38,013 nucleotides of DNA from a virus, in IMG/VR virus record IMGVR_UViG_3300015202_000002, positions 1 through 38,013 of that record; one strand, given 5' to 3'. The first letter of the stretch is position 1, and the number at the start of each line of letters is the position of its first letter. The notes under the pieces were generated by a model. It worked only from the letters and a program-made list of their open reading frames with translations. It ran no database searches and was not told where the DNA came from. The translations under genes and the position numbers were made by a program. Below are positions 1,496-35,957 of the stretch, piece after piece.

Positions 1496-3595
1496 ATGAA
1501 GGACGTAGCAAAACGCTATCAAGATAATCTTGCGCGTATTAAGAAAAAAGTTCGTAATGCGCATGACTATTTTAAAGATAATTACGACCGCTACAATGAG
1601 TTCAGACGCTTTGTTTTCGATTCTTCACTGAAAGAAGATGAAATCACTTTACTTCAAACCATTGGACGACCGCAACTAGAATTCAACGTACTCGAAGCAT
1701 ATATTAGCAGACTTCTTGGTGAGTTTTCAAAGCAAGAGCCTGACATTGAGGTTAATGCGTATGACCAAGATAAAGCTGACCCTATCACCATTAAGATTGT
1801 TGAGCAACATCTAAAGCATATGTTCATGGATGATAATAACGAACATACTCGTTATGAAGTCTACAAAGATTTGCTATCAGGTGGTTTCAGTACAATCAAA
1901 GTGTTCACTGATTATGAACACCCAATGTCTATGAATCAGGTAATCCGAATTGAACGCCAAGAACCTACACTTACAGGATTTGACAAACTCGCACGATTCT
2001 CACATAAGGGTGATGGTCAATTCTGTTTCCAATTATTCCCCAAAGATAAAGAAGAATTCTTAGAAGAAAATCCCGATATTAAACTTGAGAATTTAAGTTT
2101 CAGACGTGACTTTGCAGGATTCAATTGGTCATATCTTAACGATAACTCACAAATAATCGTGGTCGCTGATTACTATGAGAAGAAACGCAAAGAGGAAACA
2201 ATAGTTCAAGTGCGTGATGGACGTGTGATGACCTCAAGTCAATATCGAAAGATGGTTGATACGTGGAATGATATTACTATTCCCCCTTCAATCATTGGTA
2301 AACCAAGGAAAACCTTAATTGATACCATATGCCGTTATAGAGTAATCGAAAATCAGGTATTGGAGTACGAAGAAACAGACTTTTCACATTTGCCCTTAGT
2401 ATTTATTGACGGTCATTCGTTAATGATAAAGACACCGAAAAATGGCAACATACGACAGGTAACAAGACCCTATGTGTATCATGCGAAAGGTGCGCAACGC
2501 CTTAAAAACTATGCGGGGATTTCGCTTGCAAATGAGATTGAGAATACGGTACAGCATAAATTTATGGTGGCTAAAGAAGCCCTTCCAAAAGAGGAGGAAT
2601 TTCTACAAGCTTACAAGGACACTCAAAAAGAATCTGTGCTGGTTTATAATTCCGTTCATGAGTCCAACCCTGACATGCCAATTAGCAATCCAATCCGTGA
2701 AGTCAATAGGATTCCTTGTCCTCCTGAAATTGCACAGGCTTTCACTGGAGCTGACTCGCTTATTCAGAATGTACTGGGTTCCTATGATGCTAGTCTTGGT
2801 ATTAATAACAATCAGCTATCTGGTATTGCAATCGTGGAAGCTGCTAGCCAGTCAAATGCTACTGCTATGCCTTACATTGTGGGTTGTCTCCAAGGGTTCC
2901 AAAGGGTAGCTGAAATATATGTAAACTTAATGCCTAAATACTTTACTACACCACGAACACTTCCGATATTAGATGATGATGGTAAGCGACATTTTGTTAA
3001 AATCAATCAACCTAATGGACTTCCGATGGATTTTGATACTAACTCACTCAATGTGACATTGAAGGCTGGAGCAAGCTTCCAAGTTCAGAAATCAAGAACC
3101 ATTATGATGGTGAAGGAAATGATGGGCATGTCGCCATTGTTCGCTCAATTTATTGCTGAGAAAGGATTGAACTTTGTACTAGATAACATGGAAGGCAAAG
3201 GTGTTGAGCAACTTAAAGGATTAACTGATGAGTGGCTAAAAGAATATCAACAAGAAAAGCAAGCAGCACAACAAGCACAACAACAAAATCCTGCGATGAT
3301 GAAAGCACAAGTTGATATGGCTAAAGTTCAACAGAAAGGGCAGATTGACCAAGCTAAGTTACAAATCGATATGGCTAAATTGCAACAAGACCAGCAAAAA
3401 GTGATGGCTGATTTACATCTAGGCCAGCAAGCTGCTACTGTTCAATTAGTGAAAGCACAAACTGAAAAATACAAAATACATTCTGATTTGCAAATGCAAA
3501 GTCATGATATGCGACATCGGCATGTAAAGGAAGCTTTAGAGTTTCATCACAAGGCAAAACATGGCTCACAAGGAAGGAGAGCAAATGCAAACTAG
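1496..3595 (+). CDS. Portal protein
   Basis: 699 aa, immediately after TerL, AGGAG SD. Long Gln/Lys/Ala-rich helical C-terminal tail like P22-type portal barrels. Call is by size and synteny. Confidence 0.8.
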   Translation: MKDVAKRYQDNLARIKKKVRNAHDYFKDNYDRYNEFRRFVFDSSLKEDEITLLQTIGRPQLEFNVLEAYISRLLGEFSKQEPDIEVNAYDQDKADPITIKIVEQHLKHMFMDDNNEHTRYEVYKDLLSGGFSTIKVFTDYEHPMSMNQVIRIERQEPTLTGFDKLARFSHKGDGQFCFQLFPKDKEEFLEENPDIKLENLSFRRDFAGFNWSYLNDNSQIIVVADYYEKKRKEETIVQVRDGRVMTSSQYRKMVDTWNDITIPPSIIGKPRKTLIDTICRYRVIENQVLEYEETDFSHLPLVFIDGHSLMIKTPKNGNIRQVTRPYVYHAKGAQRLKNYAGISLANEIENTVQHKFMVAKEALPKEEEFLQAYKDTQKESVLVYNSVHESNPDMPISNPIREVNRIPCPPEIAQAFTGADSLIQNVLGSYDASLGINNNQLSGIAIVEAASQSNATAMPYIVGCLQGFQRVAEIYVNLMPKYFTTPRTLPILDDDGKRHFVKINQPNGLPMDFDTNSLNVTLKAGASFQVQKSRTIMMVKEMMGMSPLFAQFIAEKGLNFVLDNMEGKGVEQLKGLTDEWLKEYQQEKQAAQQAQQQNPAMMKAQVDMAKVQQKGQIDQAKLQIDMAKLQQDQQKVMADLHLGQQAATVQLVKAQTEKYKIHSDLQMQSHDMRHRHVKEALEFHHKAKHGSQGRRANAN

Positions 3596-3965: not shown

Positions 3966-4112
3966 ATGCCATTAAATAAAGGTGCTAAACCAGGCACTAA
4001 AAAGTTTGGTGCTAATATTGCCACTGAGATTAAAGCTGACAAACCAAAAAATCAGGCGATTGCAATTGCCTGCAGTGAAGCTAAATCAAAAAAGAAGGGG
4101 AAGAAGAAATGA
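3966..4112 (+). CDS. Lys-rich small protein (48 aa, below cutoff)
   Basis: MPLNKGAKPGTKKFGANIATEIKADKPKNQAIAIACSEAKSKKKGKKK. Stop overlaps the next start (ATGA). Confidence 0.55.
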   Translation: MPLNKGAKPGTKKFGANIATEIKADKPKNQAIAIACSEAKSKKKGKKK

Positions 4113-4225
4113 AAATGAAAGCCAAGGACATTAAGCAACGTGCCAAGAAAATGGACAAACACATGGATGCTAAAGAAGATAAAAAACTTGTCAAGAAAAT
4201 GGTCAAGAAGGATTGCATGAAATGA
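4109..4225 (+). CDS. Lys-rich small protein (38 aa, below cutoff)
   Basis: MKMKAKDIKQRAKKMDKHMDAKEDKKLVKKMVKKDCMK. ATGA coupling at both ends. Confidence 0.45.
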   Translation: MKMKAKDIKQRAKKMDKHMDAKEDKKLVKKMVKKDCMK

Positions 4226-4398
4226 TTGAAGATTTAGAGAAACGATTAGACGCAGTATGTGAGTCAATGGAATCTGCTGCCGCTGAATACAATCAGTCAA
4301 CGCAGTGTTTGGTAGAAGCCCTTACGGGGATTCATGAACGATTGGAGCGTATAGAAAAATGGATAGAGAGCCAAGAAAAGGTGCTGGCAAAGGACTAG
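4222..4398 (+). CDS. Hypothetical acidic helical protein (58 aa)
   Basis: ATG 4222 lies within track ORF 4213-4398. Start overlaps the previous stop. Confidence 0.55.
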   Translation: MIEDLEKRLDAVCESMESAAAEYNQSTQCLVEALTGIHERLERIEKWIESQEKVLAKD

Positions 4399-4607
4399 AT
4401 AAGAGTCCTTATAAGCGCGAAGAAGAGAAGGTCACTAAAAAGGCTTTCAAGTCAGTAGAGAAATCCGTTAAGCCTGTTGCCAAGGACACCAATAAAACAC
4501 GCAGAAAGGAAACTAAAGCGCGGATTGTAGGTGATACGGTACCAGCGGTAAAACCTAAATCGAACCTTAAAAAGGACATGAAAAAGTCCATGAAAGGTAA
4601 GTGTTAA
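4359..4607 (+). CDS. Highly basic Lys-rich protein (82 aa), histone-H1-like composition
   Basis: Track ORF. KK/KxK-rich throughout. No clear SD, and it overlaps the previous ORF by 40 nt. Confidence 0.45.
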   Translation: MDREPRKGAGKGLDKSPYKREEEKVTKKAFKSVEKSVKPVAKDTNKTRRKETKARIVGDTVPAVKPKSNLKKDMKKSMKGKC

Positions 4608-4627
4608 CTCATCACAAGGAGCGTGTT

Positions 4628-4891
4628 ATGCAAATGCTTTTGACATTTATTGCTAGTCATTTATTAACTATTCTTGAAAATTTATTGGTTCAAGAAGAGC
4701 CCGCTATTGTAGCTCAGGTTGAAAAAGAAGCTCAATTATTAATTTTAAAAATTGAATCTCTTTTAAAATCCAAATCACCTGCTGCGGCTGCGGCTTTAAA
4801 TCCCGCAATTAACCTGGTTGGTACTTTGGCAAACGATGCGGTAGAGGCAGCGGGAAACGCGGTTGTTCAAGATGTTGCCAAGGCATCATAA
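4628..4891 (+). CDS. Hypothetical protein (87 aa), hydrophobic N-terminus, Ala-rich C-terminus
   Basis: ATG 4628 after AAGGAG, inside track ORF 4601-4891. Confidence 0.6.
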   Translation: MQMLLTFIASHLLTILENLLVQEEPAIVAQVEKEAQLLILKIESLLKSKSPAAAAALNPAINLVGTLANDAVEAAGNAVVQDVAKAS

Positions 4892-4901
4892 GGGGACTAA
4901 A

Positions 4902-5081
4902 ATGGCTGAGAAATGGATTAAAGGCGCTATCAAGCACCCTGGAAAACTTCACAGAGAGCTTGGGGTTCCCGAAGGCAAAAAGATTCCTGCGAAGAAAATG
5001 GCTAAAGCGGCTAAAAGCAAAAATCCAACTATTCGCAAGGAAGTGGCTCTTGCAAAGACCTTGAAGAAAATGAAGAAATAA
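4902..5081 (+). CDS. Lys-rich small protein (59 aa)
   Basis: ATG 4902 after TAAGGGGA. MAEKWIKGAIKHPGKLHRELGVPEGKKIPAKKMAKAAKSKNP... Confidence 0.6.
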   Translation: MAEKWIKGAIKHPGKLHRELGVPEGKKIPAKKMAKAAKSKNPTIRKEVALAKTLKKMKK

Positions 5082-5117
5082 ACATACAATAATTGACTCT
5101 TTAATAAGGACATTAAA

Positions 5118-5312
5118 ATGAGCGAATATAAGTGCAAAGAGGGGATGATTGATAACCGTATGGTTAAAGACGATCATCAGCAAGGTATCAAACGTGTTCT
5201 TCAACGAAAAGAAGACCGCAATGATGTTGAAGGTCATCACGGCAAAATGGGTATGGGCGACAAAGCTCATTGGAGCCGTAAAGGTGATTCACTAACCCCA
5301 AGAAAAGCATAA
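5118..5312 (+). CDS. Hypothetical charged protein (64 aa)
   Basis: Track ORF. TAAGGA SD 7 nt upstream. Confidence 0.6.
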   Translation: MSEYKCKEGMIDNRMVKDDHQQGIKRVLQRKEDRNDVEGHHGKMGMGDKAHWSRKGDSLTPRKA

Positions 5313-5327
5313 TTATAAGGATATAAC

Positions 5328-6158
5328 ATGCCTACTATTTATCAATTGCCCACTCAGCAACCAGCAATGGTGGGTGTGTTCCCTAATCAGAAATTTGCCT
5401 TATTTGGTGATAATCTGGCCACAATTACCGCTGCTGGTTATCTTAATTCGGTTAATCTTGAAAGCAACCCGATTTCTAAGACTGACATACTCCAAGTCTT
5501 ATATTCGTTTAATCCCGTAACTCAATCAGGAACTTATGGTGTTTTTACGGTCACTATTAGCAATAGGGGAGTAATCACTCTAGTGGCGGCTGTGAGTCCA
5601 GGTGATGTATTATTGCCCGTGGTTTCAGGTGATTTTGCTGTATTTAATGGCACCACAGGTCAGATTAAAGACGCAGGATATTTGCCATCCAATGCCGCAA
5701 AAACAAATGTGGTCATGCTCTCTGCGGCTCCTACTATTGGGCATTTAGCAAGCTTTTCTGATGTCGCAGGAACCGTTCAAGATGCTGGAATTGCTTCAAC
5801 TGCTGTAATGCTTAATAACGCTGCAAACGTGATGACTGGAGCGGGTCAAATTACCTTAGCAAAAGCTAATGGTACAGAAGCCGCAAACGCAGTTACGGCA
5901 AGTGGTAATGCTGGGGTAATTACAACTTCTGCGTTAACTACTGCTGGCGGTGCTACCTATGTTATTACTTGGACTAATACTTTAATCACGGCAACATCCG
6001 TTGTAGGCTTAACAATCCAAGGCGGAACTAACAGTGCTACCAATAACATCACTTTTAAATGCGTTGTCGGTGCTGGTTCCGCTACATTAACAATTTATAA
6101 TAATACTGCCGCTACTGCTTTAAACGGTACACTGCTTATTGGTTATTCTGTGTTGTAA
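5328..6158 (+). CDS. Fibre-like / Ig-like virion protein (276 aa) inside the head module
   Basis: TAAGGATATA SD. Thr/Ala/Gly/Asn-rich beta-type sequence with repeats ending in DAG (GQIKDAGY, GTVQDAGI), as in fibre shafts. Followed by a strong hairpin. Confidence 0.6.
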   Translation: MPTIYQLPTQQPAMVGVFPNQKFALFGDNLATITAAGYLNSVNLESNPISKTDILQVLYSFNPVTQSGTYGVFTVTISNRGVITLVAAVSPGDVLLPVVSGDFAVFNGTTGQIKDAGYLPSNAAKTNVVMLSAAPTIGHLASFSDVAGTVQDAGIASTAVMLNNAANVMTGAGQITLAKANGTEAANAVTASGNAGVITTSALTTAGGATYVITWTNTLITATSVVGLTIQGGTNSATNNITFKCVVGAGSATLTIYNNTAATALNGTLLIGYSVL

Positions 6159-6169
6159 CACCCCTGTTT

Positions 6170-6209
6170 GGGCTTAATTTTTCTTCCTTTTAGTTAAGCC
6201 CAACTTTTT
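6170..6209 (+). terminator. Rho-independent terminator after the fibre-like gene
   Basis: GGGCTTAA (6170-6177) pairs with TTAAGCCC (6194-6201): 8-bp stem, 16-nt loop, then AACTTTTT. Confidence 0.65.
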
Positions 6210-6402
6210 AATGAACTGCCTTCAAATTATCTTTAAACCACTTATCGACATTTTCAGCCGTATAGTAGACCTTGCCATTGAGTTTGTAATATTGAGGGCT
6301 ATTCCCTTCGTATCGAGCTTTTCTAAACCAATGAATGGATAAACCATATCGTGCCGATACTTCTTTTTCTACTAAATATTGAACACCATCCAACAATAAC
6401 AT
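6208..6402 (-). CDS. AlpA/Xis-type (MerR-like HTH_17) DNA-binding protein, antisense to the structural genes
   Basis: 64 aa. VSARYGLSIHWFRKARYEGNSPQYYKLNGKVYYTAENVDKWF fits the excisionase/AlpA winged-HTH pattern. TAAGGATA SD on the minus strand. Confidence 0.7.
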   Translation of the reverse strand: MLLLDGVQYLVEKEVSARYGLSIHWFRKARYEGNSPQYYKLNGKVYYTAENVDKWFKDNLKAVH

Positions 6403-6438
6403 AATTATCCTTAATTAAGTTCAAAAGTTTATATAATC

Positions 6439-6467
6439 ATCATATTTCATTCTATTTCATTAGTTAA
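6439..6467 (-). promoter_or_regulatory. Candidate sigma70-type promoter for the AlpA-like gene
   Basis: Minus strand reads TTAACT (6467-6462), 17-nt spacer, TATGAT (6444-6439). Confidence 0.4.
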
Positions 6468-6605
6468 CCTTGTTTACGTCATATTCATTCAGCAAACCTA
6501 ATATTAAGTCATACCACTGTATATAGCTCATTGTTGGCAATCCCTTACTTGAATACCCTTAGAGTGTGAATTTCGCAAATGGTGCAATGGACTGCAACTT
6601 TCTCA

Positions 6606-6709
6606 CGAGACCCGTGCGTAATGCGGGGATGATTTTTATTCAGCGTGGCGGCGTAATAGCTCGAGACCTGTTCGATAGGCAGAGGAATTACCGTGGCGGG
6701 GAAATAGCT
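6606..6709 (+). repeat. Imperfect tandem duplication (56-nt and 48-nt units) in a G+C-rich leader upstream of the scaffold gene
   Basis: Both units start CGAGACC (6606, 6662) and end CGTGGCGG-NNN-AATAGCT (6644-6661, 6692-6709). Confidence 0.8.
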
Positions 6710-6722
6710 AGAAGGGAATGTT

Positions 6723-7430
6723 ATGGATAATAGTGTTATGGATAACGTGTCTGATACAACTCAGGCTCAGGGGCAAGAGACTGCTCAGCAAGCACAAGAG
6801 CGTCTTTTTAAGCAATCCGAGTTAAATGAGATTGTAGGGCGAGCCAAGCATGATGCGGTTGAAAGCTTTAAACGGCAACAACAAACGCAATCTGCGCAAC
6901 AAGCACCGCAGTCTAGTCAAGCTCAAAGCTCTAAATCATTATCGGAAGATGATGTTAAGCGGTTAACAGGCGAAGAGTTAGCACGCCAACGCGATCAATG
7001 GACTCGTGAAGCCCAAGAGAAAGCGGACGCAGAAATAGCTCAACGTATTGTAAGCAGCTACAAAGAGAAAATTGCGCCTGGGAAAGAGAAGTACGAGGAT
7101 TTCGAGGCCGTCACTAATAATGTCGATATGAGATATTATCCAAATGTCGTTCAGCTTTTAGCCGAGTACGTGGATAATTCCCATGATGTTATTTATGAAC
7201 TAGCAAAGAACAGAACAAAACTGTATCAGCTAGAATCAACGTGCGGTCACAACCCTCAAGATGCCATCTACGAGATTAAGCGTTTGTCAGATTCCATCAA
7301 AGCAAACGAATCAACATCTCAGATGAAACATGCCAATAGCCCTTTATCACAACAACGACCTTCTAACACCGGAACGGATTCGGGTAATTCTCTGTCGATG
7401 CGTGATTTAAAAGCCAAGTATCGAGGATAA
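6723..7430 (+). CDS. Scaffolding protein
   Basis: 235 aa, Gln/Glu/Lys-rich helical low-complexity sequence, immediately upstream of the coat gene. Confidence 0.7.
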   Translation: MDNSVMDNVSDTTQAQGQETAQQAQERLFKQSELNEIVGRAKHDAVESFKRQQQTQSAQQAPQSSQAQSSKSLSEDDVKRLTGEELARQRDQWTREAQEKADAEIAQRIVSSYKEKIAPGKEKYEDFEAVTNNVDMRYYPNVVQLLAEYVDNSHDVIYELAKNRTKLYQLESTCGHNPQDAIYEIKRLSDSIKANESTSQMKHANSPLSQQRPSNTGTDSGNSLSMRDLKAKYRG

Positions 7431-7473
7431 GCTCTGAATTCTAACTTAAGGATTAAAGTTAGGAGTAACTAAC

Positions 7474-8790
7474 ATGGCTGTTTTCCCAAATAATATTTTA
7501 CAAACCGTCCAAACCTATCAAAGGTCAGGACTTGCGCTGTTACAGAACTTATGTTGTCATATTTCTACAGCTAGTACAAAATTTAAAGATTTTGATAAAA
7601 TTCAGGCCAACTTGGGTTCTGCTGTTACCTTCGATTTGCCGCCTCGTGCGACTACAACTGCTGGTCTTGTTGCGTCATTCCAACCTGCTGTACAACGTGT
7701 ACAACAATTGATTTGTGACCAAGCAAACAACAGTTCATTCGCTGTTACATCTCAACAACGTATCTTCAACTTGGAAAAAGGCGAAGAAGATTACATGCGT
7801 GTGTTTGGTAAGTCATTCATCGCTGAATTGGCTACACAAGTTGAAGGCAACGTTGCTCTTAACTGGGCATCGGCTGTTCAAAGTCAATTAGATGGAACTC
7901 TAAATACATTTTCAGGCCCATATCGTTATTTCGGTAATGGTTCTACTGCTCTAACCTCTTACCAACAATTAGCGCAAGCTATTATGTTCTTCAAGAACTA
8001 CGGCTCTGTAGCAGAGGGTATTAAGGTTTACCTTCCTGATACTGTAGTTCCTGCTGTCGTGGGTAATGGACTTAACCAATTTGTACCACATCGTAACGAT
8101 GAAATCGCTATGTCTTGGGAAATTGGGGATTTCGGTACTCCATTAGTAAGCTACTATCAGTCAAACTTAATGCCGATTCACGTATCTGGTGACACTGGTG
8201 TTAATCAGCAAACATTGACTGTTGTAAGCACTAACGATCCAACAGGACAAAACGTAACTCAAATCACTGTAAGTGGTGCGACTGCGAGCGATGCTAATGC
8301 CGTGTTCTCTGGTGACTTGTTTAGCTTCCAAGACGGTGTTTCTGGTCAGCCTAACATGCGCTACTTAACGTTCATTGGTCACTTCCCAAGTGCTAACCAA
8401 GTTCAGTTCCGAGCAACTGCTAACGCTGCTGCTAACTCTGGTGGTGTTGTAACAATTAACATTACTCCTGCGCTTAACTGGGCTGGCGGTCAAAATCAAA
8501 ACTTGAATAACCCAATCGCGGCTGGAATGCAAATCCTCGGAGTTGCTTCTCACAGATGCGGCGGTATTTTGGGTGGCGATGCGTTTTATTTGGCAATGCC
8601 TCAATTACCAGAACAACGTCCTTATGACACTGCAAATGAGTATGACGATGACACTGGTGTGTCTATGCGTTTGACCTACGGTTCTTTATTCGGTCAAAAC
8701 GAGACAGGCATGATTTATGACGAAACACATGGTTCTGTAATCGTTCCTGAATACTCCATGCGCTATGTCATTCCATTGTCTCAAGGTTAA
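7474..8790 (+). CDS. Major capsid (coat) protein, P22-coat-like
   Basis: 438 aa, AGGAG SD, follows the scaffold gene, followed by a hairpin. Size and layout, including an inserted-domain-like segment, resemble P22 gp5 by eye. Confidence 0.82.
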   Translation: MAVFPNNILQTVQTYQRSGLALLQNLCCHISTASTKFKDFDKIQANLGSAVTFDLPPRATTTAGLVASFQPAVQRVQQLICDQANNSSFAVTSQQRIFNLEKGEEDYMRVFGKSFIAELATQVEGNVALNWASAVQSQLDGTLNTFSGPYRYFGNGSTALTSYQQLAQAIMFFKNYGSVAEGIKVYLPDTVVPAVVGNGLNQFVPHRNDEIAMSWEIGDFGTPLVSYYQSNLMPIHVSGDTGVNQQTLTVVSTNDPTGQNVTQITVSGATASDANAVFSGDLFSFQDGVSGQPNMRYLTFIGHFPSANQVQFRATANAAANSGGVVTINITPALNWAGGQNQNLNNPIAAGMQILGVASHRCGGILGGDAFYLAMPQLPEQRPYDTANEYDDDTGVSMRLTYGSLFGQNETGMIYDETHGSVIVPEYSMRYVIPLSQG

Positions 8791-8795
8791 TTGTC

Positions 8796-8834
8796 GAGTA
8801 GGTGACTAATCATCACCTACTTAAACTCATTTTA
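8796..8834 (+). terminator. Hairpin / partial terminator after the coat gene
   Basis: GTAGGTGA (8798-8805) pairs with TCACCTAC (8813-8820), 7-nt loop, then TTAAACTCATTTT. Confidence 0.5.
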
Positions 8835-8848
8835 AGAGGATTAATAAA

Positions 8849-9715
8849 ATGCCTACAGCTCAAATACAAAATGAAACCATATATGCGTTACCTCGCTTAT
8901 ATATTCAAGGCTTGCAATTGTCAGCCGCTACACCTACTGCTGCTACTGTAGTTTGTGTTGCCCCTGGTGCTGCAAGAGATTCTACTAACAGTATCGATAT
9001 GGTCGTAGGGCTACAAAACTACTTCGGAATTGATAATCCAGCTCAATTGTTTAATGGCTACCAACCTGGATTATTCATCAATTCAGCGGTTAATGGTACT
9101 AATGGATTGGACACTGGAACAATTGCTGCTAGTACTCAATACGCTGTGTATTTAATTGGTGATTCACGTAATTATCAAAATACTGCTGCTGTATTAAGTT
9201 TAACCAGCAATACCGCTCCTCTGTTACCAGCAGGCTATGACTCCTATCGTTTGATTGGATTCTGGGCAACTGATGGTTCCAGTCACTTTGTGTACGCAAC
9301 TGTTAAGCCACAAAACATTGGCGGATTGTTGACTTATTTCAACTCTCCAGCGGTTTCTGTCTTGTCTGGTGGTACTGCCACTTCTTTCACTGCGATTGAC
9401 CTGACTACTAACAGTGCAATTCCTACTACTACACTTCAGAACATAATCGTTACTTTGTTAGTAACTTTTACACCCGTAGCAATTGGCGACACTGTTCAGT
9501 TTAGACCTACAGGTTCCAGTGCTACTGGTGGGTTACCAATAATTACAGGTGCGGTAGCAGGAATTGCTCAAAGCCAATACATCCAAGTAATAGCTGGTGT
9601 TGGTTCATCTAAACCTGAAATTGACTACAAAGTAACTTCTGGTTCTGATGCTGTGAGTGTCTCTGTAGTTGAATGGGCTGGTGTATCTAACAGCGCTTAC
9701 CCTGCTCTAGTTTAA
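8849..9715 (+). CDS. Virion structural protein (288 aa), function unknown
   Basis: Track ORF between the coat and adaptor-like genes. Thr/Ala/Gly-rich beta-type sequence. Confidence 0.7.
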   Translation: MPTAQIQNETIYALPRLYIQGLQLSAATPTAATVVCVAPGAARDSTNSIDMVVGLQNYFGIDNPAQLFNGYQPGLFINSAVNGTNGLDTGTIAASTQYAVYLIGDSRNYQNTAAVLSLTSNTAPLLPAGYDSYRLIGFWATDGSSHFVYATVKPQNIGGLLTYFNSPAVSVLSGGTATSFTAIDLTTNSAIPTTTLQNIIVTLLVTFTPVAIGDTVQFRPTGSSATGGLPIITGAVAGIAQSQYIQVIAGVGSSKPEIDYKVTSGSDAVSVSVVEWAGVSNSAYPALV

Positions 9716-9736
9716 TAACTTAAGGAGTGAGTTGTT

Positions 9737-10486
9737 ATGCCATATTTAGCTCAGGACTTAATAACTCGCTCCTGGTTTTTATCAGGGATTGTTGCTCGTA
9801 ATTTGCAAATACCTACAGGCGATCAAATCTATGATGGCTTGCAGATGCTTAATGATTTGCTCAATTTTAAACAGATTGAGACCGATTTAATTCCATATTG
9901 GACTTATATCGAGTTACCTCTTGTGGCCAATCAAGAGTACTATTTTCTTCCTTATGTAGCTGCGATTGAGTCGGCCACCTTTAATATTGATGTTGTGCGT
10001 TACCCTATGGATTATGTCAGCAGACGTAACTATTACGGTTCATCACGAGTTGATAATATTTCAACACTACCTTTTAGCTGGAACTATAATCGGGCATTAG
10101 GTGGCGGCAATATGGCTTTATATTTTAAGCCTGAGTCAAATTACCCCATGAAGATGATGGTTAAGTTATTTCTAGTGGATGTAACGTTAACCACAGACTT
10201 AACTAATATTTCTGAAATCGTTCCATATACCTTTGTTAATAGCGCAAATCAAGGTCTTGATACTGCGTATATAGAATATCTGCGATACGCTTTAGCACAG
10301 TACATGTGTAGCGAATACGGTGTTCTATTTAATCCAGAATCTGAAAAGATACTTACAAAATACATGCGAAAACTTATGTGGGAAAGCCCACCAGACCTAT
10401 CAAGTATCAAGACAAGTATCTTAACTGAATGCCAAGGATTGAACTGGGGTGATATCAATATTGGTAAGGGCTGGCGACCCTCATAG
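9737..10486 (+). CDS. Putative head-to-tail adaptor (P22 gp4 position)
   Basis: 249 aa. Call is by synteny (coat ... adaptor ... gp10-like hub) only. Confidence 0.55.
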   Translation: MPYLAQDLITRSWFLSGIVARNLQIPTGDQIYDGLQMLNDLLNFKQIETDLIPYWTYIELPLVANQEYYFLPYVAAIESATFNIDVVRYPMDYVSRRNYYGSSRVDNISTLPFSWNYNRALGGGNMALYFKPESNYPMKMMVKLFLVDVTLTTDLTNISEIVPYTFVNSANQGLDTAYIEYLRYALAQYMCSEYGVLFNPESEKILTKYMRKLMWESPPDLSSIKTSILTECQGLNWGDINIGKGWRPS

Positions 10487-10530
10487 GAAAGGGTTGGCGC
10501 CCTAATATTAATTTGTTACTATTCCTCTGA
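10486..10530 (+). pseudogene. Relic second copy of the 3' end of the upstream gene (GKGWRP NINLLLFL stop), out of frame
   Basis: 10486-10503 (gga aag ggt tgg cgc cct) versus 10463-10480 (ggt aag ggc tgg cga ccc): 14/18 identical, and all 4 differences fall at codon third positions. Confidence 0.45.
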
Positions 10531-10546
10531 ATTAATTAAAGAGGAA
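10522..10546 (+). promoter_or_regulatory. Hairpin sequestering the Shine-Dalgarno of the nuclease gene
   Basis: TTCCTCT (10522-10528) pairs with AGAGGAA (10540-10546). The right arm is the only SD for ATG 10551. Confidence 0.55.
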
Positions 10547-10550
10547 GAAA

Positions 10551-11156
10551 ATGATTGTAAAAATATGCGCGGAACATGGTGAGTTAACTGAAAATTTAGC
10601 CCATCAAGAAAAAAACAAAAAATGTAAATCTGGTTTTATGTGGCGTTGCAATCAATGTAAACTAGAAAAAGACAGGCGATGGAAAGAATTAAATTGGGAG
10701 CAACACAAAGAGTCAGCAGGAAAGGCTCGCTCTAAGGCAAGAGAAAATTATAGAAATGGATTTATTACTGAAGAGCCAAAGGCAAATGTTTGGGGCCGCC
10801 AATACAGGAAAGATAATCCAGAATTGCATAGTGAATGGGCAAGAAGAGGAAGAGAGAGGCTTGGCCCGTTAAGAAATATTAGAGAAATTACCCGTGTCAG
10901 AGGCATTACTCTAGATGAATATTATGCGATTGAAGGGAAGCAAAATGGTAAATGTTCTATTTGTAATTGCGAAGAAACTAGAAATAATAGAAGTGGGTCT
11001 ACTGCTAGATTATGTTTAGACCATAATCATACTACTGGACAAGTGCGCGAGTTATTATGTCATGCTTGCAATCAAGTTATAGGGCATAGCAGAGAATCTA
11101 TTGAAATACTAAAAAACGCGATAAGCTATTTAGAAAGACAAAAGCACATAGATTAA
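10551..11156 (+). CDS. Endonuclease VII-family (HNH-like) nuclease with N-terminal Cys-rich region
   Basis: C-terminal KCSICN...LCLDHNHTTGQVRELLCHACNQVIG matches the T4 gp49/Endonuclease_7 signature (DHxH-TG-VRGLLC-xCN). Located inside the tail module. Confidence 0.8.
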   Translation: MIVKICAEHGELTENLAHQEKNKKCKSGFMWRCNQCKLEKDRRWKELNWEQHKESAGKARSKARENYRNGFITEEPKANVWGRQYRKDNPELHSEWARRGRERLGPLRNIREITRVRGITLDEYYAIEGKQNGKCSICNCEETRNNRSGSTARLCLDHNHTTGQVRELLCHACNQVIGHSRESIEILKNAISYLERQKHID

Positions 11157-11171
11157 CCCCATTAACCAAGG

Positions 11172-11366
11172 ATGGTTACTATGAGTGATAGACCTAATTT
11201 GATTGACCATGAGGTCAGATTAAGACTTATAGAAAAAAGACTTGATGATTGCGATAAAAAAGACAAATCGCATCAAGATACATTGAAAGGACAATTTACA
11301 TGGATAATTGGCACAGTAATCACATCCATAAGCGGACTGATACTTCATGCTATTAAGTTAATTTAA
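11172..11366 (+). CDS. Small tail-anchored membrane protein (XhlA-like architecture)
   Basis: 64 aa: charged helical N-terminus, then W-IIGTVITSISGLILHAI transmembrane segment. The start may be ATG 11181, which has better SD spacing. Confidence 0.6.
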   Translation: MVTMSDRPNLIDHEVRLRLIEKRLDDCDKKDKSHQDTLKGQFTWIIGTVITSISGLILHAIKLI

Positions 11367-11375
11367 GGATGATTG

Positions 11376-13094
11376 ATGGTTGCTCGCGGGCAGAATTTCA
11401 GACAATTTCCAGTGAATGTAGTAGGTTCAAGCATCTTCGGGCGTTATCCGAAAATCAGCATTGAAAAAACCTACAATATGTTCATGTCTGATAAATTCAT
11501 GGTTCCTTATGCGGGCTATAATATTGGAATAACATCAGCCGACTTTGCAAATGCCATTCAGGGCAGAGCTATCTTTACCAGTACAAAATTCGATGAATTA
11601 GTGGTAGTCGAAGGTAACGGTGTCTACCTTGTGAACATTGTTTACAATCAACGTAGAGAAGAAATAACCTTTTTTCAAGTTTTTAAAATTGGAACATTAC
11701 AAACTCAAACGGGTGTTGTTTATATTGCTGAAAACAATAAACCTCAGATTGGAATTTCTGACGGTACAGCTTTTTATATTTACGATCCAACTCTCGACCC
11801 AGTATTTCAAGCCGTTCCATTAAATTTTAAACCTGGATATCTAACTTTCCATGATACCTATTTTATTTTAGCGGCTTCTCAGGATAATACCTATACTCCT
11901 CGTGCTAATAATACGTGGCGTTTATCAGGACAAAATGATGGACTAACATGGAGTTCAAATAGTGCCAGCGTAGGATTATTACAAACTAAACCTGATAATG
12001 TTCAAGCTGTGGTGCGCTTCCCCTCTAAAGGTAATATGATATTTGTAATGGGAAGCATTGTAACCGAAGCATGGTTTGATACCGGAGCACAGTTATTCCC
12101 CTATCAACGTAACAACCAATTTAATATCGACTATGGTTGTCTACAACCTGCCACAGTTGCCTATATGGATGAATTTGTAGTCTGGTTGGCTCAAAATGAG
12201 AGAAGTGGTCCAATTATTGTATATTCTGACGGTGGTATGCCCAAAAAGATTACTACTGACGGTATTGATTATCTGTTCTCAACGCTACAAGACCCTGAGG
12301 ATTCACAAGCTTTCCTTTATCGACAAGATGGACATTTGTTTTATCATATTAATTTTTATACCGATAATCTTTCATTGGTTTATGATTTTTCTACCGAAAA
12401 GTTTTACCACGCTTGTGACCAGAATCTTAATTATTTCATAGCCTCAGAAGTAGCATTTTTCAACAATCAATATTATTTCATATCAAAAAACAATGGTAAT
12501 TTATTTGTATTTGATACCACCATTACCACCTATCAAGATATAGACAGCTTAGGCAATAAAGTCACGCATGAAATCCCACGCATCAGAGCGTGTGCCAATA
12601 TTCGTACTCCAGACCAAAATTATCAGATTATTAATGATATTGGGTTTACGATTGAGTCAGGCGAAACGGATTATGAACAGCAGTCATTAGGCGAAATCAT
12701 CTTGATTACTCAAGATGGGAATATTTTGATTACTCAAGGTGGCATCCCTGAGTTAATTACGCAATCAGGGAACCCAATATTATCTCAAGATGGCACAATA
12801 TTTATCATGCAACAAAATCCAGGTGGCACCAACACCGCTGAATTAATTGCTCAGCAAGACGCTAACACTGGATTTAGCAATCTATCTTTACCGCACGTTG
12901 ATTTATCTATATCAACTGATGGCGGCGCATCATTTGGTAATGAATGGGCATATTACTTGCCAGCTATAGGACATCGAAAGAATAGATTGATGTGGTGGCA
13001 GATTGGAATTGCCAATGATTTTGTACCTCAATTTAAATTCTGGGGAATGGGTAGATTTGTGGTAACGGATGGCATAGCAAACACAAGGGTATAG
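11376..13094 (+). CDS. Tail hub / DNA-stabilisation protein (P22 gp10-like)
   Basis: 572 aa from ATG 11376 (TAAGGA SD). The C-terminus LSISTDGGASFGNEW...RKNRLMWWQIG...FVVTDG resembles the P22 gp10 C-terminus (SATTDGINYGRE...RVLWKRVG) as I recall it. Confidence 0.7.
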   Translation: MVARGQNFRQFPVNVVGSSIFGRYPKISIEKTYNMFMSDKFMVPYAGYNIGITSADFANAIQGRAIFTSTKFDELVVVEGNGVYLVNIVYNQRREEITFFQVFKIGTLQTQTGVVYIAENNKPQIGISDGTAFYIYDPTLDPVFQAVPLNFKPGYLTFHDTYFILAASQDNTYTPRANNTWRLSGQNDGLTWSSNSASVGLLQTKPDNVQAVVRFPSKGNMIFVMGSIVTEAWFDTGAQLFPYQRNNQFNIDYGCLQPATVAYMDEFVVWLAQNERSGPIIVYSDGGMPKKITTDGIDYLFSTLQDPEDSQAFLYRQDGHLFYHINFYTDNLSLVYDFSTEKFYHACDQNLNYFIASEVAFFNNQYYFISKNNGNLFVFDTTITTYQDIDSLGNKVTHEIPRIRACANIRTPDQNYQIINDIGFTIESGETDYEQQSLGEIILITQDGNILITQGGIPELITQSGNPILSQDGTIFIMQQNPGGTNTAELIAQQDANTGFSNLSLPHVDLSISTDGGASFGNEWAYYLPAIGHRKNRLMWWQIGIANDFVPQFKFWGMGRFVVTDGIANTRV

Positions 13095-13095
13095 A

Positions 13096-13467
13096 ATGGC
13101 AACGCAACAACCAATATTACAGGCGATATTTCCAGACTTACCAAGAGAAACACCGGTCATCGATAAAAACGGTGATTTTAATCCATTGTGGAGTTTAGGA
13201 CTTTCGGCTTTATTTCAAGCATTACAAGCGAATTATAAGAATGAAGGCATCATTTTCCCGCGATTAAGTGCTGCCAATATTGCAACAATTCAGGCAATTT
13301 ATACACCATTAATTGGTGCGCCTTTACCACAAAACATACCTGATATCAGTGGGCAAACCGTATTCGATACGACTAACCGAGTTTCAAAACAATTTGTTAT
13401 CACGTATGATGGAGCTACGCCGCCGAATATTTTAACGGCTACGTGGAGGACGTTTGTTTATCTATGA
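13096..13467 (+). CDS. Virion protein (123 aa), possibly plug/needle-associated
   Basis: Track ORF. Call is by position after the hub gene only. Confidence 0.5.
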   Translation: MATQQPILQAIFPDLPRETPVIDKNGDFNPLWSLGLSALFQALQANYKNEGIIFPRLSAANIATIQAIYTPLIGAPLPQNIPDISGQTVFDTTNRVSKQFVITYDGATPPNILTATWRTFVYL

Positions 13468-13481
13468 TTCAAGGATGAATT

Positions 13482-14087
13482 ATGAGCTGGCTAAGTAATT
13501 TTTTTGGCGGTGGAAAAAACCCCGCAGACGCAGCAATGCCCTATCTTAATCAGATTCCAGGGCAAACACAACAATATCAACAACCTTGGTTTGAAGCTGG
13601 AAAAAATCAATTGTCTGGACTTCAAGATCAATATGGTCAGTTGATGAATGATCCAGGTGGCAAGATGAATAAGATTGGAGAATCTTTTCAACAATCACCT
13701 GGCTTTAAATTTGCTATGGATCAAGCAATGCAAGGTGGAAACCATGCGGCGGCGGCTGGTGGGATGGCGGGTAGTCCACAACACGAACAACAAAACATGC
13801 AAATGGCAACAGATTTGGGCAACCAAGATTACAATAATTGGATGCAAAATGCGCTGGGTATGTATGGTCAAGGATTACAAGGTTCTCAAGGAATGGCTAA
13901 TCAAGGACAACAAGCAGGAAAAAGCATGGCTGATATGATAGCCCAAACCTTAGCACAACAAGCCAACCTACAATTTCAAGGTCAAAGACAACAAAATCAA
14001 AATAAAAATGATTTATGGGGTGGTATCGCTAAAGGTATTGGCTCTGTTGCTTCTTTCAATCCTTGGGGTGCTTTTGGCAACATTTAA
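13482..14087 (+). CDS. Ejection/internal virion protein 1 (Gln/Gly/Met/Asn-rich)
   Basis: 201 aa. First of three consecutive genes in the position of P22 gp7/gp20/gp16. Strong low-complexity composition. Confidence 0.6.
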   Translation: MSWLSNFFGGGKNPADAAMPYLNQIPGQTQQYQQPWFEAGKNQLSGLQDQYGQLMNDPGGKMNKIGESFQQSPGFKFAMDQAMQGGNHAAAAGGMAGSPQHEQQNMQMATDLGNQDYNNWMQNALGMYGQGLQGSQGMANQGQQAGKSMADMIAQTLAQQANLQFQGQRQQNQNKNDLWGGIAKGIGSVASFNPWGAFGNI

Positions 14088-14096
14088 GGATTAATC

Positions 14097-15206
14097 ATGT
14101 CATTTACTTTTACAAATTATGCTGGCATCGAACCCCAAGCTTCTCCTTGGCAAGATATGATTGGAAAAATGTTAAGTGGTTATACTGATATGACCAAAGC
14201 TAAGTTTTTAAAACCAGGTCTTGAGGAAGCCCTTAAAAAAGAGCAATTATTTAATCAATATTATGGACGAGACAAAGAATCTCAAATTGGTCTTCGTGGT
14301 GCTCAAGCTGGACATTTAGGCTCTCTTACAACAGGTCAGAATATTACTAATCAATATATGCCTGAACAATTAAAAGCAGAAATGGAAGCAAAGCAACAAG
14401 CAGCACAACAAGCTCATATGTTTAATCAAATGCTACAACAACGCCTACAAGGTAATGGTCAAGGAGGAATGCCAAATATGGGTGGTCAAATGGGTGGTGG
14501 CCAAGAACAAGGATATAATCCAGGTCAAGGAAGCGCTCCTTTTGCTCAAGGTGAACCTATGCCTCAACATCCACAAGTTCAGCAACCACAAAATCAATTT
14601 ATGCAAGAACCACAACTTTCAAATGATGATATTGTTAATAAAAAATTCTTTGGAATGGATACATTTACACCAAAATATAAAGCTTATGTTGATGCCATGA
14701 CAAGCGGTATGAAAAAGAAAGAAGCAGAAAAATATAAATTAGAAGCTAAAAAAGATTTTGAAGATTTCAAAACAGCCGATATTGCTCAAAAAGACGTTCC
14801 TGTTCTTGAAAATGCGCTTGAGTCTGCGAACAAGATGAAAGAAATTATTCAAAATAGACCTGCTCTTTCTGGTCATACTTGGTTTCCAGGTTATTTTGCA
14901 AAGACTGCAACTGATCCAGAGGCCGGAGTATTTCAATCTAAACTAATTCCACAAATGGCAGCTTTAGAAAGTCAATTAAGCAGCAAAGGAAATCAGCTTG
15001 CTCTTAAAATAGCCGCTTCTAAATTACCAGGATTTGAAAATTCTCAGGCTGTTAACTTAGGTAGAATTGATGGCCTCATTGATGAGATCCAAAAGCGTCT
15101 CAAAGTAAGTGGTGAACTGGGTGGTGGCATGATTAAACGTATCGGTAATAAGCGATACAAGAAAATCGATGGTGAATGGCATGAGATTGAGAAAGGTGAC
15201 TTATAA
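14097..15206 (+). CDS. Ejection/internal virion protein 2 (Gln/Gly/Met-rich centre)
   Basis: 369 aa. Call is by synteny, as above. Confidence 0.6.
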   Translation: MSFTFTNYAGIEPQASPWQDMIGKMLSGYTDMTKAKFLKPGLEEALKKEQLFNQYYGRDKESQIGLRGAQAGHLGSLTTGQNITNQYMPEQLKAEMEAKQQAAQQAHMFNQMLQQRLQGNGQGGMPNMGGQMGGGQEQGYNPGQGSAPFAQGEPMPQHPQVQQPQNQFMQEPQLSNDDIVNKKFFGMDTFTPKYKAYVDAMTSGMKKKEAEKYKLEAKKDFEDFKTADIAQKDVPVLENALESANKMKEIIQNRPALSGHTWFPGYFAKTATDPEAGVFQSKLIPQMAALESQLSSKGNQLALKIAASKLPGFENSQAVNLGRIDGLIDEIQKRLKVSGELGGGMIKRIGNKRYKKIDGEWHEIEKGDL

Positions 15207-17200: not shown

Positions 17201-17339
17201 ATGTATTTATTTTTCTCAAATGAGTTATTATTACCCATTTCATAGGGGAATAAAGATGTATTTACCTACGGCTTATGTGATTTTTGTATTAATATTGTTG
17301 GTATTAGATTTGTAAAATAAATAATTCAAAGGATTGATT

Positions 17340-19202: not shown

Positions 19203-19278
19203 TATTATAGGTCGATACGATGTACATGAAGTAATATTGTGTCGAAAATTATGCGATTTTTAAACATGAGGACATGGA

Positions 19279-19629
19279 ATGTCTACACTATTAAGCTTTG
19301 GCAGGGATGTTCAAGGGTATAATGCCTACGCCCCACAACCATCTACGAATAAATGGTCGGCAACTATTACTACTGGAAGTGCTACCAGTATCACAGTTCC
19401 ATCTAATTTTCAAACATGGGTAGTATCATTTAGATACTATCCTAATGATGTTTGGGTTGATGTTACTGGAGCGACAGCCGCAATCCCAGTTGGAGCCACA
19501 TTAGCTTCCTCTACAGCCGAATTAAATCCTGCGTCACTCACCTTGCAAGCAGGAACTAATATTAGCATGATTACGGGTCTTACATCAGCAGATGTGAGTG
19601 TCGTTATGTGGCCTGTGAGTTATCCATAA
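19279..19629 (+). CDS. Small beta-rich virion-associated protein (116 aa)
   Basis: Track ORF within the fibre block. Confidence 0.6.
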   Translation: MSTLLSFGRDVQGYNAYAPQPSTNKWSATITTGSATSITVPSNFQTWVVSFRYYPNDVWVDVTGATAAIPVGATLASSTAELNPASLTLQAGTNISMITGLTSADVSVVMWPVSYP

Positions 19630-19808
19630 TGCCAGCATTAGAACATGAATTTATGTTTGACCCAAACTATGCTCTGGGAACAGAAAGCGTATTTACACTG
19701 GTTGACCATGAAGAAATCGCGCCATTTCCACCCATTGTAGGATACTTTTTGTTATTGAATGGCGGTAATTTTTTGCTCCTTAATGGGCAAAATCTAACTC
19801 TATTATAG
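19629..19808 (+). CDS. Small protein (59 aa) ending in FLLLNGGNFLLLNGQNLTLL repeats
   Basis: ATG 19629 overlaps the previous stop (TAATG). Lies inside track ORF 19608-19808. Confidence 0.55.
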   Translation: MPALEHEFMFDPNYALGTESVFTLVDHEEIAPFPPIVGYFLLLNGGNFLLLNGQNLTLL

Positions 19809-19817
19809 GGATATACG

Positions 19818-20486
19818 ATGTCAGAGAATATTAATCAGGTCTTTATAGCTAACCCTATAACATCCAACGCATCAACTGACTTAATGTATTTTGGTCAATC
19901 ACCATATGGTGCTGGAAATGATGCCGCCATGACTTATGGTAATTTTAAGTTACAGTTTCTTGCTTCCAACCCAACAAATCACGGTGTATTAATTGGTGCC
20001 GGAACTAATGTGGCTACATCCACTATATTAGCTGCTGGACAAGTCTTAATAGGAACCACTGCTAGCAATCCAGTCGCCGCCGCATTAACAGCGGGCACAA
20101 ATATTAGCATCACTTCTGCCACAGGATCCATAACAATTAATGCTAGCGGAATTGCATCGTTCGCGTGGAATGATGTAGCAAGTGGCACCCAAGCAATGGC
20201 AGTGAATCAAGGTTATATTACTGATAATGGCGCATCATTGGTCACTTATACGCTGCCCGCTGTAGCTGCTTTAGGTACTGTTGTTAGAGTGTGCGGTAAA
20301 AGTAGTGGTGGTTGGACAATTGTTCAAAATGCTGGACAGTCTATTATTATAGGAAGCAAGCAAACCACGGTGACAAGTGGAAGCTTATCAAGTGCTAATG
20401 CTAATGACACGGTGGAGCTGCTTTGTACGGTAGCAAATACCACCTTTACCGTATTAAGTACGGTAGGTAACTTAACTTACGTATAA
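19818..20486 (+). CDS. Fibre paralog A (222 aa)
   Basis: Shares a C-terminal domain of about 95 aa (N-GY-TDNGASLVTYTLP...GKSSGGW...QNAGQSI...ANTT) with the next two genes. Confidence 0.75.
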   Translation: MSENINQVFIANPITSNASTDLMYFGQSPYGAGNDAAMTYGNFKLQFLASNPTNHGVLIGAGTNVATSTILAAGQVLIGTTASNPVAAALTAGTNISITSATGSITINASGIASFAWNDVASGTQAMAVNQGYITDNGASLVTYTLPAVAALGTVVRVCGKSSGGWTIVQNAGQSIIIGSKQTTVTSGSLSSANANDTVELLCTVANTTFTVLSTVGNLTYV

Positions 20487-20497
20487 GGATATAGGTA

Positions 20498-21133: not shown

Positions 21134-21145
21134 GGATATACTGAA

Positions 21146-21637: not shown

Positions 21638-21655
21638 ACTTAAGGGATTAAAAAC

Positions 21656-22891: not shown

Positions 22892-22892
22892 G

Positions 22893-34066: not shown

Positions 34067-34155
34067 ATACAATTTACAATAATAATAATTATTACTTTCT
34101 GTAGCGTTAAGCTTGTGTTAGTATTTAATGATTGATTAAGCTAAGGATAGCTATA

Positions 34156-34386: not shown

Positions 34387-34394
34387 GGTCAAGG

Positions 34395-35920: not shown

Positions 35921-35957
35921 TTTTGTTTTAGTAGATTTTCAGTAATAAGGATATTAC

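Follow-up and report, generated by a model that had tools for sequence, protein, structure and literature searches.

Introduction

Autoregulation of the scaffold gene of phage P22 has been known since 1985, reportedly through the work of Casjens & Adams (1985) and Wyckoff & Casjens (1985). The control is post-transcriptional and is exerted by the gene's own product, according to the references cited in PMC5529062. A second phage messenger RNA (mRNA) with control of this sort is that of T4 gene 32, whose leader PMC10690425 describes as a pseudoknot that serves as an autogenous translational operator. At the RNA level, little has been established about how scaffold and coat dosage is controlled in tailed phages. 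Here we analyse a stretch of 38,013 nucleotides (nt) from the IMG/VR virus record IMGVR_UViG_3300015202_000002, in which two tandem repeat units stand in front of a gene at the scaffold position, itself followed by the capsid gene. "The window" denotes this whole stretch, and coordinates in the leader are those of its + strand. The units are almost certainly part of a real structured mRNA leader, which probably acts on translation or on mRNA stability and not on transcription. That a protein binds it, making it a translational operator for scaffold and capsid, is the reading that we tentatively favour, by analogy with other leaders. As an RNA of ~155 nt that can be tested, the leader makes the question of scaffold and coat dosage accessible to experiment.

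Results

Two tandem units upstream of the scaffold gene

The G+C fraction of the DNA in front of the scaffold gene rises from 0.21-0.29 at 6360-6519 to 0.45-0.54 at 6560-6719. An earlier note, made from the sequence of the window, had pointed out this switch from AT-rich to G+C-rich DNA together with two imperfect head-to-tail units in the G+C-rich part; both are present as it described them.

6606-6661, + strand: unit A, 56 nt
6662-6709, + strand: unit B, 48 nt

Both units open with CGAGACC, and their 3' ends are CGTGGCGGCGTAATAGCT and CGTGGCGGGGAAATAGCT; a repeat search gave CGAGACC(C/T)GT and CGTGGCGG(C/G)G(T/A)AATAGCT as the ends that they have in common. Counted on an alignment of 87 distinct units (alignment A1), units A and B are ~73% identical. 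Each carries a small hairpin, in which CCCG 6611-6614 pairs with CGGG 6624-6627 (unit A) and CCTG 6667-6670 with CAG(A)G 6680-6684 (unit B). The coordinates reported for these hairpins hold, and so does the compensatory exchange of C6613:G6625 in unit A for T6669:A6681 in unit B, which turned out to be one case of a covariation found across the whole family. ATGATTTTTATT lies directly 3' of hairpin A, again as described.

Tandem Repeats Finder missed the repeat because of an 8-nt indel in the linker. A covariance model of the unit, run with filters off on both strands of the window, recognised only 6606-6661 (63.0 bits) and 6662-6709 (61.2 bits), each with E ~1e-16, and the next-best match scored 7 bits. 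Since only those two places in the window score, the tandem units are beyond chance. The minimum-free-energy fold of the single sequence was less stable than those of shuffles (z = +1.96), which is expected for pseudoknots and hence uninformative.

The units occur in one phage family and one gene context

In order to find relatives of the locus we searched with the capsid protein, which yielded 187 IMG/VR relatives; 80 were kept, and six from species genomes were added. In the resulting 86 loci (646 kb) the covariance model found 147 copies, all on the + strand and directly 5' of the scaffold ATG, normally two per locus, so that the conservation of units and hairpins in related phages, named in the earlier note as a check, is borne out. 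By blastn of the intergenic region the G+C-rich part (~6580-6722) was kept in more than 50 loci and the AT-rich part only in the closest ones. Mean nucleotide identity to the window was 79% for the two units, 72% for the scaffold gene and 65% for the upstream spacer. Relatives that bear the units reach down to a capsid identity of 58% (L147 and L159) and 47% (L172), and in L172 and L147 the fold is kept despite different sequences.

A strict unit pattern was then run on 185,579 species genomes and on IMG/VR. Thirty stretches in the species genomes carry it; the covariance model accepts three, all from the phage family of the window, and the other 27 were discarded as chance (at most 18 bits). 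In IMG/VR the pattern occurs in 66 contigs, of which 65 have a homologue of the scaffold, the capsid or both downstream on the strand of the units, L156 being the sole contig in which neither was detected. The element is found only in one uncultured podophage family, present in metagenomes of many samples, and in a single gene context. Some whole-phage-sized contigs of this family (L081-L086 and L111) have been assigned to metagenome-assembled genomes. The labels of these genomes (Bacteroidetes, Rhabdochlamydiaceae, Parvularculaceae, Sulfuricurvum, Legionellaceae and a betaproteobacterium) span at least five unrelated lineages, probably through mis-binning, and do not point reliably to any host.

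Each unit comprises two miniature H-type pseudoknots

The fold was derived on alignment A1 and on alignment A2, which consists of the 147 covariance model hits; the model behind A2 held only two nested stems, leaving the pseudoknot pairs unfitted. The consensus of the unit reads CGAGAC, a stem of 4-5 bp, the loop NCGNNAN, the other strand of the stem, GG, a variable linker, A(C/G)CGU, RRY, GG(G/C)G, NAAUA and RYY. As read from the alignments, each unit is a pair of minimal H-type pseudoknots with stems S1 and S2, which gives a leader with four predicted pseudoknots in series:

6606-6628, + strand: unit A pseudoknot 1; S1 C6606-G6618 and G6607-C6617; S2 6612-6615 with 6623-6626, plus C6611-G6627; then GG
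6629-6641, + strand: unit A linker, U-rich and variable (AUGAUUUUUAUUC)
6642-6661, + strand: unit A pseudoknot 2 (AGCGUGGCGGCGUAAUAGCU); S1 G6643-C6652 and C6644-G6651; S2 G6647·U6661, G6648-C6660 and C6649-G6659
6662-6685, + strand: unit B pseudoknot 1; S1 C6662-G6674, G6663-C6673 and A6664-U6672; S2 6668-6671 with 6679-6682; A6683 bulged; then GG
6690-6709, + strand: unit B pseudoknot 2 (ACCGUGGCGGGGAAAUAGCU); S1 C6691-G6700 and C6692-G6699; S2 G6695·U6709, G6696-C6708 and C6697-G6707

In unit B pseudoknot 2 an additional pair U6694-A6710 is possible, and RNAalifold adds a U-A pair there (UA 29, UG 3).

Stem S2 of pseudoknot 1 corresponds to the hairpin of the earlier note. It occurs as CCCGU/GCGGG, CUCGU/GCGAG, CCCAC/GUGGG and CUCAU/GUGAG, its pairs covarying as CG/UA/UG and GC/AU beside a conserved U·G. 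In S1 the first two nt of the unit pair with nt 2 and 3 of the loop. These dinucleotides match in 103 of 109 distinct units (CG/CG in 89, GU/AC in 8 and AG/CU in 6, with six exceptions), a count defined by position because MAFFT misregisters the GUAGAC...GAC variants and undercounts this pairing. Longer versions of S1 exist as CGAU/AUCG and, in L172, as the 4-bp GAGU/ACUC. In pseudoknot 2, S2 joins RRY to RYY in the forms GAU/AUC, GAC/GUC, AGC/GCU, GGC/GCU, UGC/GCA and AAC/GUU, that is with GC/AU/GU, GC/AU and CG/UA/UG at its three positions. Its S1 pairs (C/G)C with G(G/C), as ACCG...GGGG or AGCG...GGCG; these two types exchange places between units A and B across clades, and L147 has CGG/CCG. 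RNAalifold offered an alternative for pseudoknot 2, CGU with GCG, that was rejected since it fails in the ACCG...GGGG type.

On alignment A1, 94.4% of the cells in the proposed pairs can pair, compared with 28-56% when the partners are slid by 1-3 columns. Double-sided changes occur in 10 of 11 pairs, and none of 500 shuffles reached the observed covariation score, a count that is not a probability, as shuffles overstate the independence of related sequences. Alignment A2 gave 95.1% against 12-50%, and there the unfitted pseudoknot pairs still covary (CG 59, GC 50 and UA 1 for a pair of S1 in pseudoknot 2; CG 108 and GC 3 for another pair). We give more weight to the slid controls and to the variety of pair types than to the shuffles. 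G·U pairs fill 81 cells of A1, including the U·G at 6615·6623 in most units; read from the minus strand they would be A·C, which identifies + strand RNA, of mRNA sense, as what folds. About 20 unpaired nt of the unit are near-invariant, namely GAC, GG, A-CGU, GG-G and AAUA.

These findings bear on what the repeat is. Among the options listed by the earlier note, the RNA leader is strongly supported by the covariation, the + strand G·U pairs, the position downstream of a promoter and the abutment on the scaffold ribosome site. Binding sites in DNA, either direct repeats for the helix-turn-helix (HTH) protein encoded nearby or a packaging (pac) signal, and a small protein read from the units are very improbable even when taken together. 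The repeats are indeed direct and near the HTH gene, but it is the pairing that is conserved rather than the sequence, G·U is valid on one strand only, and the units at 6606-6709 lie downstream of the conserved promoter. Three relatives (L056, L061 and L069) appear by eye to have no HTH gene directly upstream and keep their units. A packaging signal found no support, the terminase genes being elsewhere (TerS at 34383-34928). The candidate small protein, an open reading frame (ORF) of 54 amino acids (aa) at 6566-6730, was rejected: only 4 of 65 leaders keep it open, the lengths of the leaders show no 3-nt periodicity (25, 15 and 22 in the three classes modulo 3), and it hit no family.

The linker bears on a further proposal, that hairpin A and the U-run behind it form an intrinsic terminator regulated by the other structures, with the leader as a transcription attenuator. 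A loose scan does label 6611-6627 plus GATGATTTTT terminator-like. Among relatives the linker is 4-14 nt long and variable in sequence, and its U-run is not conserved; in many of them the U-rich part is short or absent (GGAACTTAG, GGTATAAG, GGCATTAG), and where the U-run is long, several nt separate it from the stem (e.g. GGGGAATGTTTTTT). The stem itself is short (5-6 pairs) and is part of the covarying pseudoknot. We regard attenuation as a very slight possibility.

Some relatives contain an insert of ~28-31 nt between the units (L077 at ~3083-3111, L079 at ~3107-3137), which by eye is itself an H-type pseudoknot, with pairings CAGU/ACUG with CCUAU/AUAGG and AACGCA/UGCGUU with CUAG/CUAG. The leader appears to grow through added pseudoknot modules.

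A conserved promoter and a 5'-terminal domain

The earlier note had found no good sigma70 promoter on the + strand. A strict consensus scan was likewise negative on that strand, the version in the window being too weak for it, but the relatives reveal a conserved promoter-like element at 6531-6559, followed by a further structured domain:

6531-6536, + strand: TTGTTG, putative -35 hexamer of the conserved sigma70-like promoter
6554-6559, + strand: TACCCT, putative -10 hexamer
6565-6605, + strand: 5'-terminal domain, in which helix P0 (UGUGAA 6565-6570 with UUCUCA 6600-6605) encloses a GGA-loop hairpin
6583-6596, + strand: this hairpin, UGCA-AUGGAC-UGCA, with an ANGGAN hexaloop that resembles a Shine-Dalgarno sequence and a CsrA site

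Of 43 related leaders, 29 have TTGNNN-17-TANNNT at a constant position, compared with 10% of shuffles; the spacer measures 17 nt in 27 of the 29, and the L172 version is TTGACA-17-TATATA. Transcription is predicted to start near 6565-6567, and from this predicted start the units would sit in a 5' untranslated region (UTR) of ~155 nt. They begin at least 46 nt downstream of the -10 hexamer.

Helix P0 forms 5 of 6 pairs in the window, with one mismatch, and adjoins unit A; in the relatives its 5' strand begins 5-7 nt past the -10 hexamer. A helix-length test on single sequences did not discriminate, and a first swap test was frame-sensitive and was replaced by a test on 32 loci, in which a locus's own strands gave a helix of at least 6 bp in 91% of cases and strands exchanged between loci in 31%. 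At least 12 sequence types of P0 occur, e.g. TGTGGG/CCCACA, GTGAGCA/TGCTCAC and ATGGATG/CATCCAT. Across the family P0 encloses one or two hairpins with loops A(N)GGA(N). The hairpin at 6583-6596 was independently predicted by RNAalifold with covariation (pair 36-43: AU 17, CG 10, UA 3, UG 2), the GGA of its loop is invariant in alignment A3, and even the distant L172 and L147 retain it; relatives show C-AAGGAU-G. The loop lies ~130 nt upstream of the scaffold ATG, and there is no start codon behind this hairpin.

The 5' domain is where a simpler function has to be weighed, namely that the leader is a constitutive stabiliser of the mRNA and enhancer of its translation, needing no dedicated regulator; together with the compact pseudoknot array, the 5' domain would shield the message as far as the ribosome site from nucleases that depend on the 5' end, and make it long-lived and strongly translated. 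P0 begins at the predicted +1, and a Shine-Dalgarno-like ANGGAN loop near the 5' end recalls STAB-SD of cryIIIA. A strong hairpin behind the capsid gene (8796-8822) could set the 3' end of a stable two-gene mRNA; scaffold and capsid are the proteins needed most abundantly, and no partner protein was found. However, ~20 unpaired nt that stay invariant down to 47% capsid identity are unusual for simple stabilisers, the single-stranded AU-rich linker in unit A of the window is a typical RNase E target, and neither the exact duplication nor the abutment on the Shine-Dalgarno sequence would be needed. Such a function is rather unlikely, in our estimate.

Hairpins with an ANGGAN hexaloop are frequent elsewhere in the window. 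Sixteen with stems of at least 4 bp occur among 186 ANGGAN sites on the + strand, compared with 4.2 ± 2.0 expected from permuted flanks, and at least seven of the 16 stand 6-9 nt upstream of a start codon, many genes of the window having their Shine-Dalgarno sequence in the loop of a small hairpin. Examples are 5100-5117, 5313-5326, 11163-11178, 13463-13484, 21128-21141, 34139-34152 and 35942-35957, and further 7448-7470, 9718-9738 and, on the minus strand, 6402-6417. Such loops have the classical form of CsrA/RsmE sites, or else belong to hairpins that present the Shine-Dalgarno sequence.

Upstream of the promoter there is a conserved DNA motif, ATATTNNNTNANA (e.g. AATATTAAGTCATAC), at 6501-6513 and again at 6481-6493, ~60 nt upstream of the predicted start. 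It was found in 19 of 36 loci, at 0.72 sites per locus as against 0.06 in shuffles, and lies 101-112 nt before unit A in related loci, repeated every 20 nt in L029 and L050 and in 10-nt steps in L013. As a candidate site for a regulator, for example the 64-aa HTH protein, ATATTNNNTNANA ranks above the G+C-rich units.

The units abut the ribosome site of the scaffold gene

The second unit runs up to the translation start of the scaffold gene, the relevant features being:

6712-6717, + strand: Shine-Dalgarno sequence AAGGGA
6723-6725, + strand: scaffold start codon ATG

Unit B ends 2 nt 5' of the Shine-Dalgarno sequence, and a conserved AGAAGG(R)A follows it directly. In all parsed loci 10-17 nt separate the end of unit B from the ATG, despite insertions elsewhere in the leader. 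Two pairings that involve the Shine-Dalgarno sequence were rejected: a 3-bp pairing of YCC with its GGA, proposed by RNAalifold, has too little covariation, and the inverted repeat 6538-6546/6712-6720, which would mask it, has its first arm upstream of the predicted start.

Within 6719-6745, where the scaffold gene starts, there are two copies of TGTTATGGATAA 15 nt apart, so that two ATGs lie in frame (MDNSVMDN). The first of these copies is similar to a degenerate third pseudoknot-2 module (GU-UAU-GGAU-AAUA-GUG), in which the AUG would be embedded; this is unproven, and synonymous changes in relatives disrupt the middle pair of the putative module.

Compact pseudoknots, invariant loop nt and an adjoining ribosome site are also what a tandem riboswitch would have, with each unit binding a small molecule or ion as an aptamer and the two cooperatively gating translation of scaffold and capsid; the tandem layout resembles the tandem glycine, preQ1-I and NAD+-I aptamers. 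The Infernal search of Rfam suggested in the earlier note was run, and no family matched: Rfam 15 (4227 families) gave no hits on the whole window at gathering thresholds, and the hits on 6100-6900 with E allowed up to 10 were all irrelevant, being eukaryotic families or chance matches of at most 22 bits. ARAGORN found neither tRNA nor tmRNA. Riboswitch classes normally cover several genes and organisms, and here there is one gene context in one phage family. RNAalifold gave no covarying expression platform that would alternate with exposure of the Shine-Dalgarno sequence, and capsid genes offer no metabolite rationale. A riboswitch is therefore quite improbable. The motif is undescribed in the literature searched; it may be listed anonymously among the 8,495 structured-RNA candidates from IMG/VR in PMC10690425.

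Genome setting

The window looks like a complete podophage genome of ~38 kb. The genes that matter for the leader are:

86-1435: large terminase
1496-3595: portal, P22-type
5328-6158, + strand: 276-aa gene upstream of the HTH gene
6208-6402, minus strand: 64-aa HTH protein, weakly resembling excisionase/regulator HTH proteins
6723-7430, + strand: 235-aa protein in scaffold position
7474-8790: capsid protein, 438 aa
34383-34928: small terminase TerS, Sf6-type

SSB, RecT, YqaJ, a primase-helicase and endonuclease VII were recognised as well, and the scaffold protein has no recognised domain. In tblastn searches the capsid protein met only coats of cultured Vibrio and Shewanella podophages at 23% identity, so there is no close cultured relative; no counterpart of 6150-7450 turned up when blastn was run on 50,697 phage records.

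A late operon of ~17 kb runs on the + strand from 6723 to 23776, headed by the leader. A scan of 29 ORFs recognised neither an RNA polymerase or sigma factor nor a Q/N-like antiterminator or RNA-binding domain, and the phage probably uses the host polymerase. This setting would suit a put-like element, in which the nascent leader binds the host RNA polymerase and causes it to read through the whole late operon. The leader is promoter-proximal and heads a long operon, none of the phage factors that could do the same was recognised, a conserved host partner would account for the invariant loops, and a strong hairpin follows the capsid gene. The earlier note had compared its two stems with put; the anatomy differs, however, the leader having four pseudoknots where put has two plain stem-loops. 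Terminator-like sites in the operon are not in excess (14, compared with 11.8 in shuffles), no U-run adjoins the hairpin behind the capsid gene, and the fixed contact with the Shine-Dalgarno sequence would go unexplained. We hold processive antitermination of this kind to be improbable.

Two further hairpins flank the region. Between the convergent 276-aa gene and HTH gene, a 12-bp hairpin (TTGGGCTTAATT/AGTTAAGCCCAA) at 6168-6205 with T-runs on both strands is likely a bidirectional terminator, in agreement with the earlier claim that the upstream operon ends at a terminator. Immediately 3' of the capsid stop codon there is a strong 10-bp hairpin (8796-8822; segment 8785-8855 folds at -18 kcal/mol), with a U-run that starts 8 nt further on. 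It may mark the 3' end of an abundant scaffold-capsid mRNA or stabilise that mRNA, or else terminate transcription in part.

From the portal gene to the 276-aa gene (3966-5312) there is a series of small, very lysine-rich ORFs (48-96 aa) with no significant family matches, which may encode internal or ejection proteins, or proteins that bind nucleic acid.

Discussion

The fold of the leader, its strand, its conservation, its fixed place by the ribosome site and its single gene context are matters of observation. We favour a translational operator because a structured 5' UTR, invariant unpaired nt, an exact duplication, the abutment on a ribosome site and the restriction to a single gene resemble leaders that are operated by proteins, for instance those of ribosomal-protein genes and of T4 gene 32 (PMC10690425). 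Specificity for one gene is typical of autogenous leaders. In this model 6565-6722 would be the 5' untranslated leader of the scaffold and major-capsid mRNA, acting in cis and post-transcriptionally. A conserved partner acting in trans, probably a dimeric or cooperative protein, would dock on the two near-identical units; free scaffold protein, free coat protein and a host factor are candidates. Docking would hinder the 30S subunit at the adjacent ribosome site, or trap it there, and the synthesis of scaffold and capsid would thereby be matched to assembly. The 5' helix and the Shine-Dalgarno-like loop might additionally protect the 5' end.

Several points weigh against an operator. No partner protein was found, and the scanned ORFs of the window include no recognised RNA-binding domain. 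The scaffold protein diverges fast (30-60% identity), whereas the RNA loops are invariant, which fits the scaffold less well than a partner of slower change, for example coat protein, ribosome or RNA polymerase. The invariance of the loops could also reflect intramolecular triplex contacts, required by such short stems. RNAalifold gave no covarying pairing that masks the Shine-Dalgarno sequence, the transcription start is a predicted one, and the shuffle counts are inflated by the relatedness of the sequences. It is rather doubtful, yet worth stating, that the leader is a self-sufficient RNA device on host machinery, whether through docking of the 30S subunit in the manner of an internal ribosome entry site or a standby site or, as a new put-like class, through RNA polymerase; or else that it is the first defined RNA operator for feedback of an assembly protein in double-stranded DNA phages. 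Tandem minimal H-type pseudoknots with stems of 2-5 bp are an unusual architecture that suits structural work and could serve as a compact regulatory part.

Among known systems, P22 is the nearest in gene order. The phage of the window shares with it the podophage type, the P22-type portal and a scaffold gene directly before the coat gene, with an Sf6-type small terminase here. To our knowledge no RNA operator has been defined in P22, so that the structures cannot be compared. The put sites of HK022 are two plain stem-loops one nt apart that are not linked to a ribosome site. Like them, the leader is promoter-proximal and would act in cis, with a pair of structured modules heading a long operon and no recognised antiterminator protein; unlike them, its modules are double pseudoknots of ~50 nt fixed next to a Shine-Dalgarno sequence.

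The 5' domain has likenesses of its own. The ANGGAN hexaloop hairpin at 6583-6596, with a second GGA in the Shine-Dalgarno sequence AAGGGA, is like the targets of CsrA/RsmE, a likeness that covers this domain only and not the repeated units, the two GGA sites being ~125 nt apart; no CsrA-like ORF was found in the window with an approximate query sequence. As in STAB-SD of cryIIIA, a Shine-Dalgarno-like sequence lies near the 5' end, distant from the start codon.

The E. coli rpsO mRNA contains a single pseudoknot that includes the start region and is locked by protein S15. The leader resembles it in having a pseudoknot beside a ribosome site and differs in having several. Serial or duplicated pseudoknots are known from the 3' UTRs of eukaryotic RNA viruses, as the upstream pseudoknot domain of tobacco mosaic virus and the duplicated exonuclease-resistant RNAs of flaviviruses. 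Neither these arrays nor rpsO have a sequence or Rfam relationship to the leader.

With T4 gene 32 the leader shares an H-type pseudoknot in a phage 5' leader, upstream of the ribosome site, and the specificity for one gene. In T4 gene 32 a single pseudoknot precedes an unstructured A/U-rich tract, along which gp32 polymerises, whereas here there are four, reaching to the Shine-Dalgarno sequence; the T4 product binds single-stranded nucleic acid, and the downstream product here is a scaffold protein. The tandem double-pseudoknot motif with its GGA-loop domain, absent from Rfam 15, belongs to a known kind, the structured phage mRNA leader with pseudoknots.

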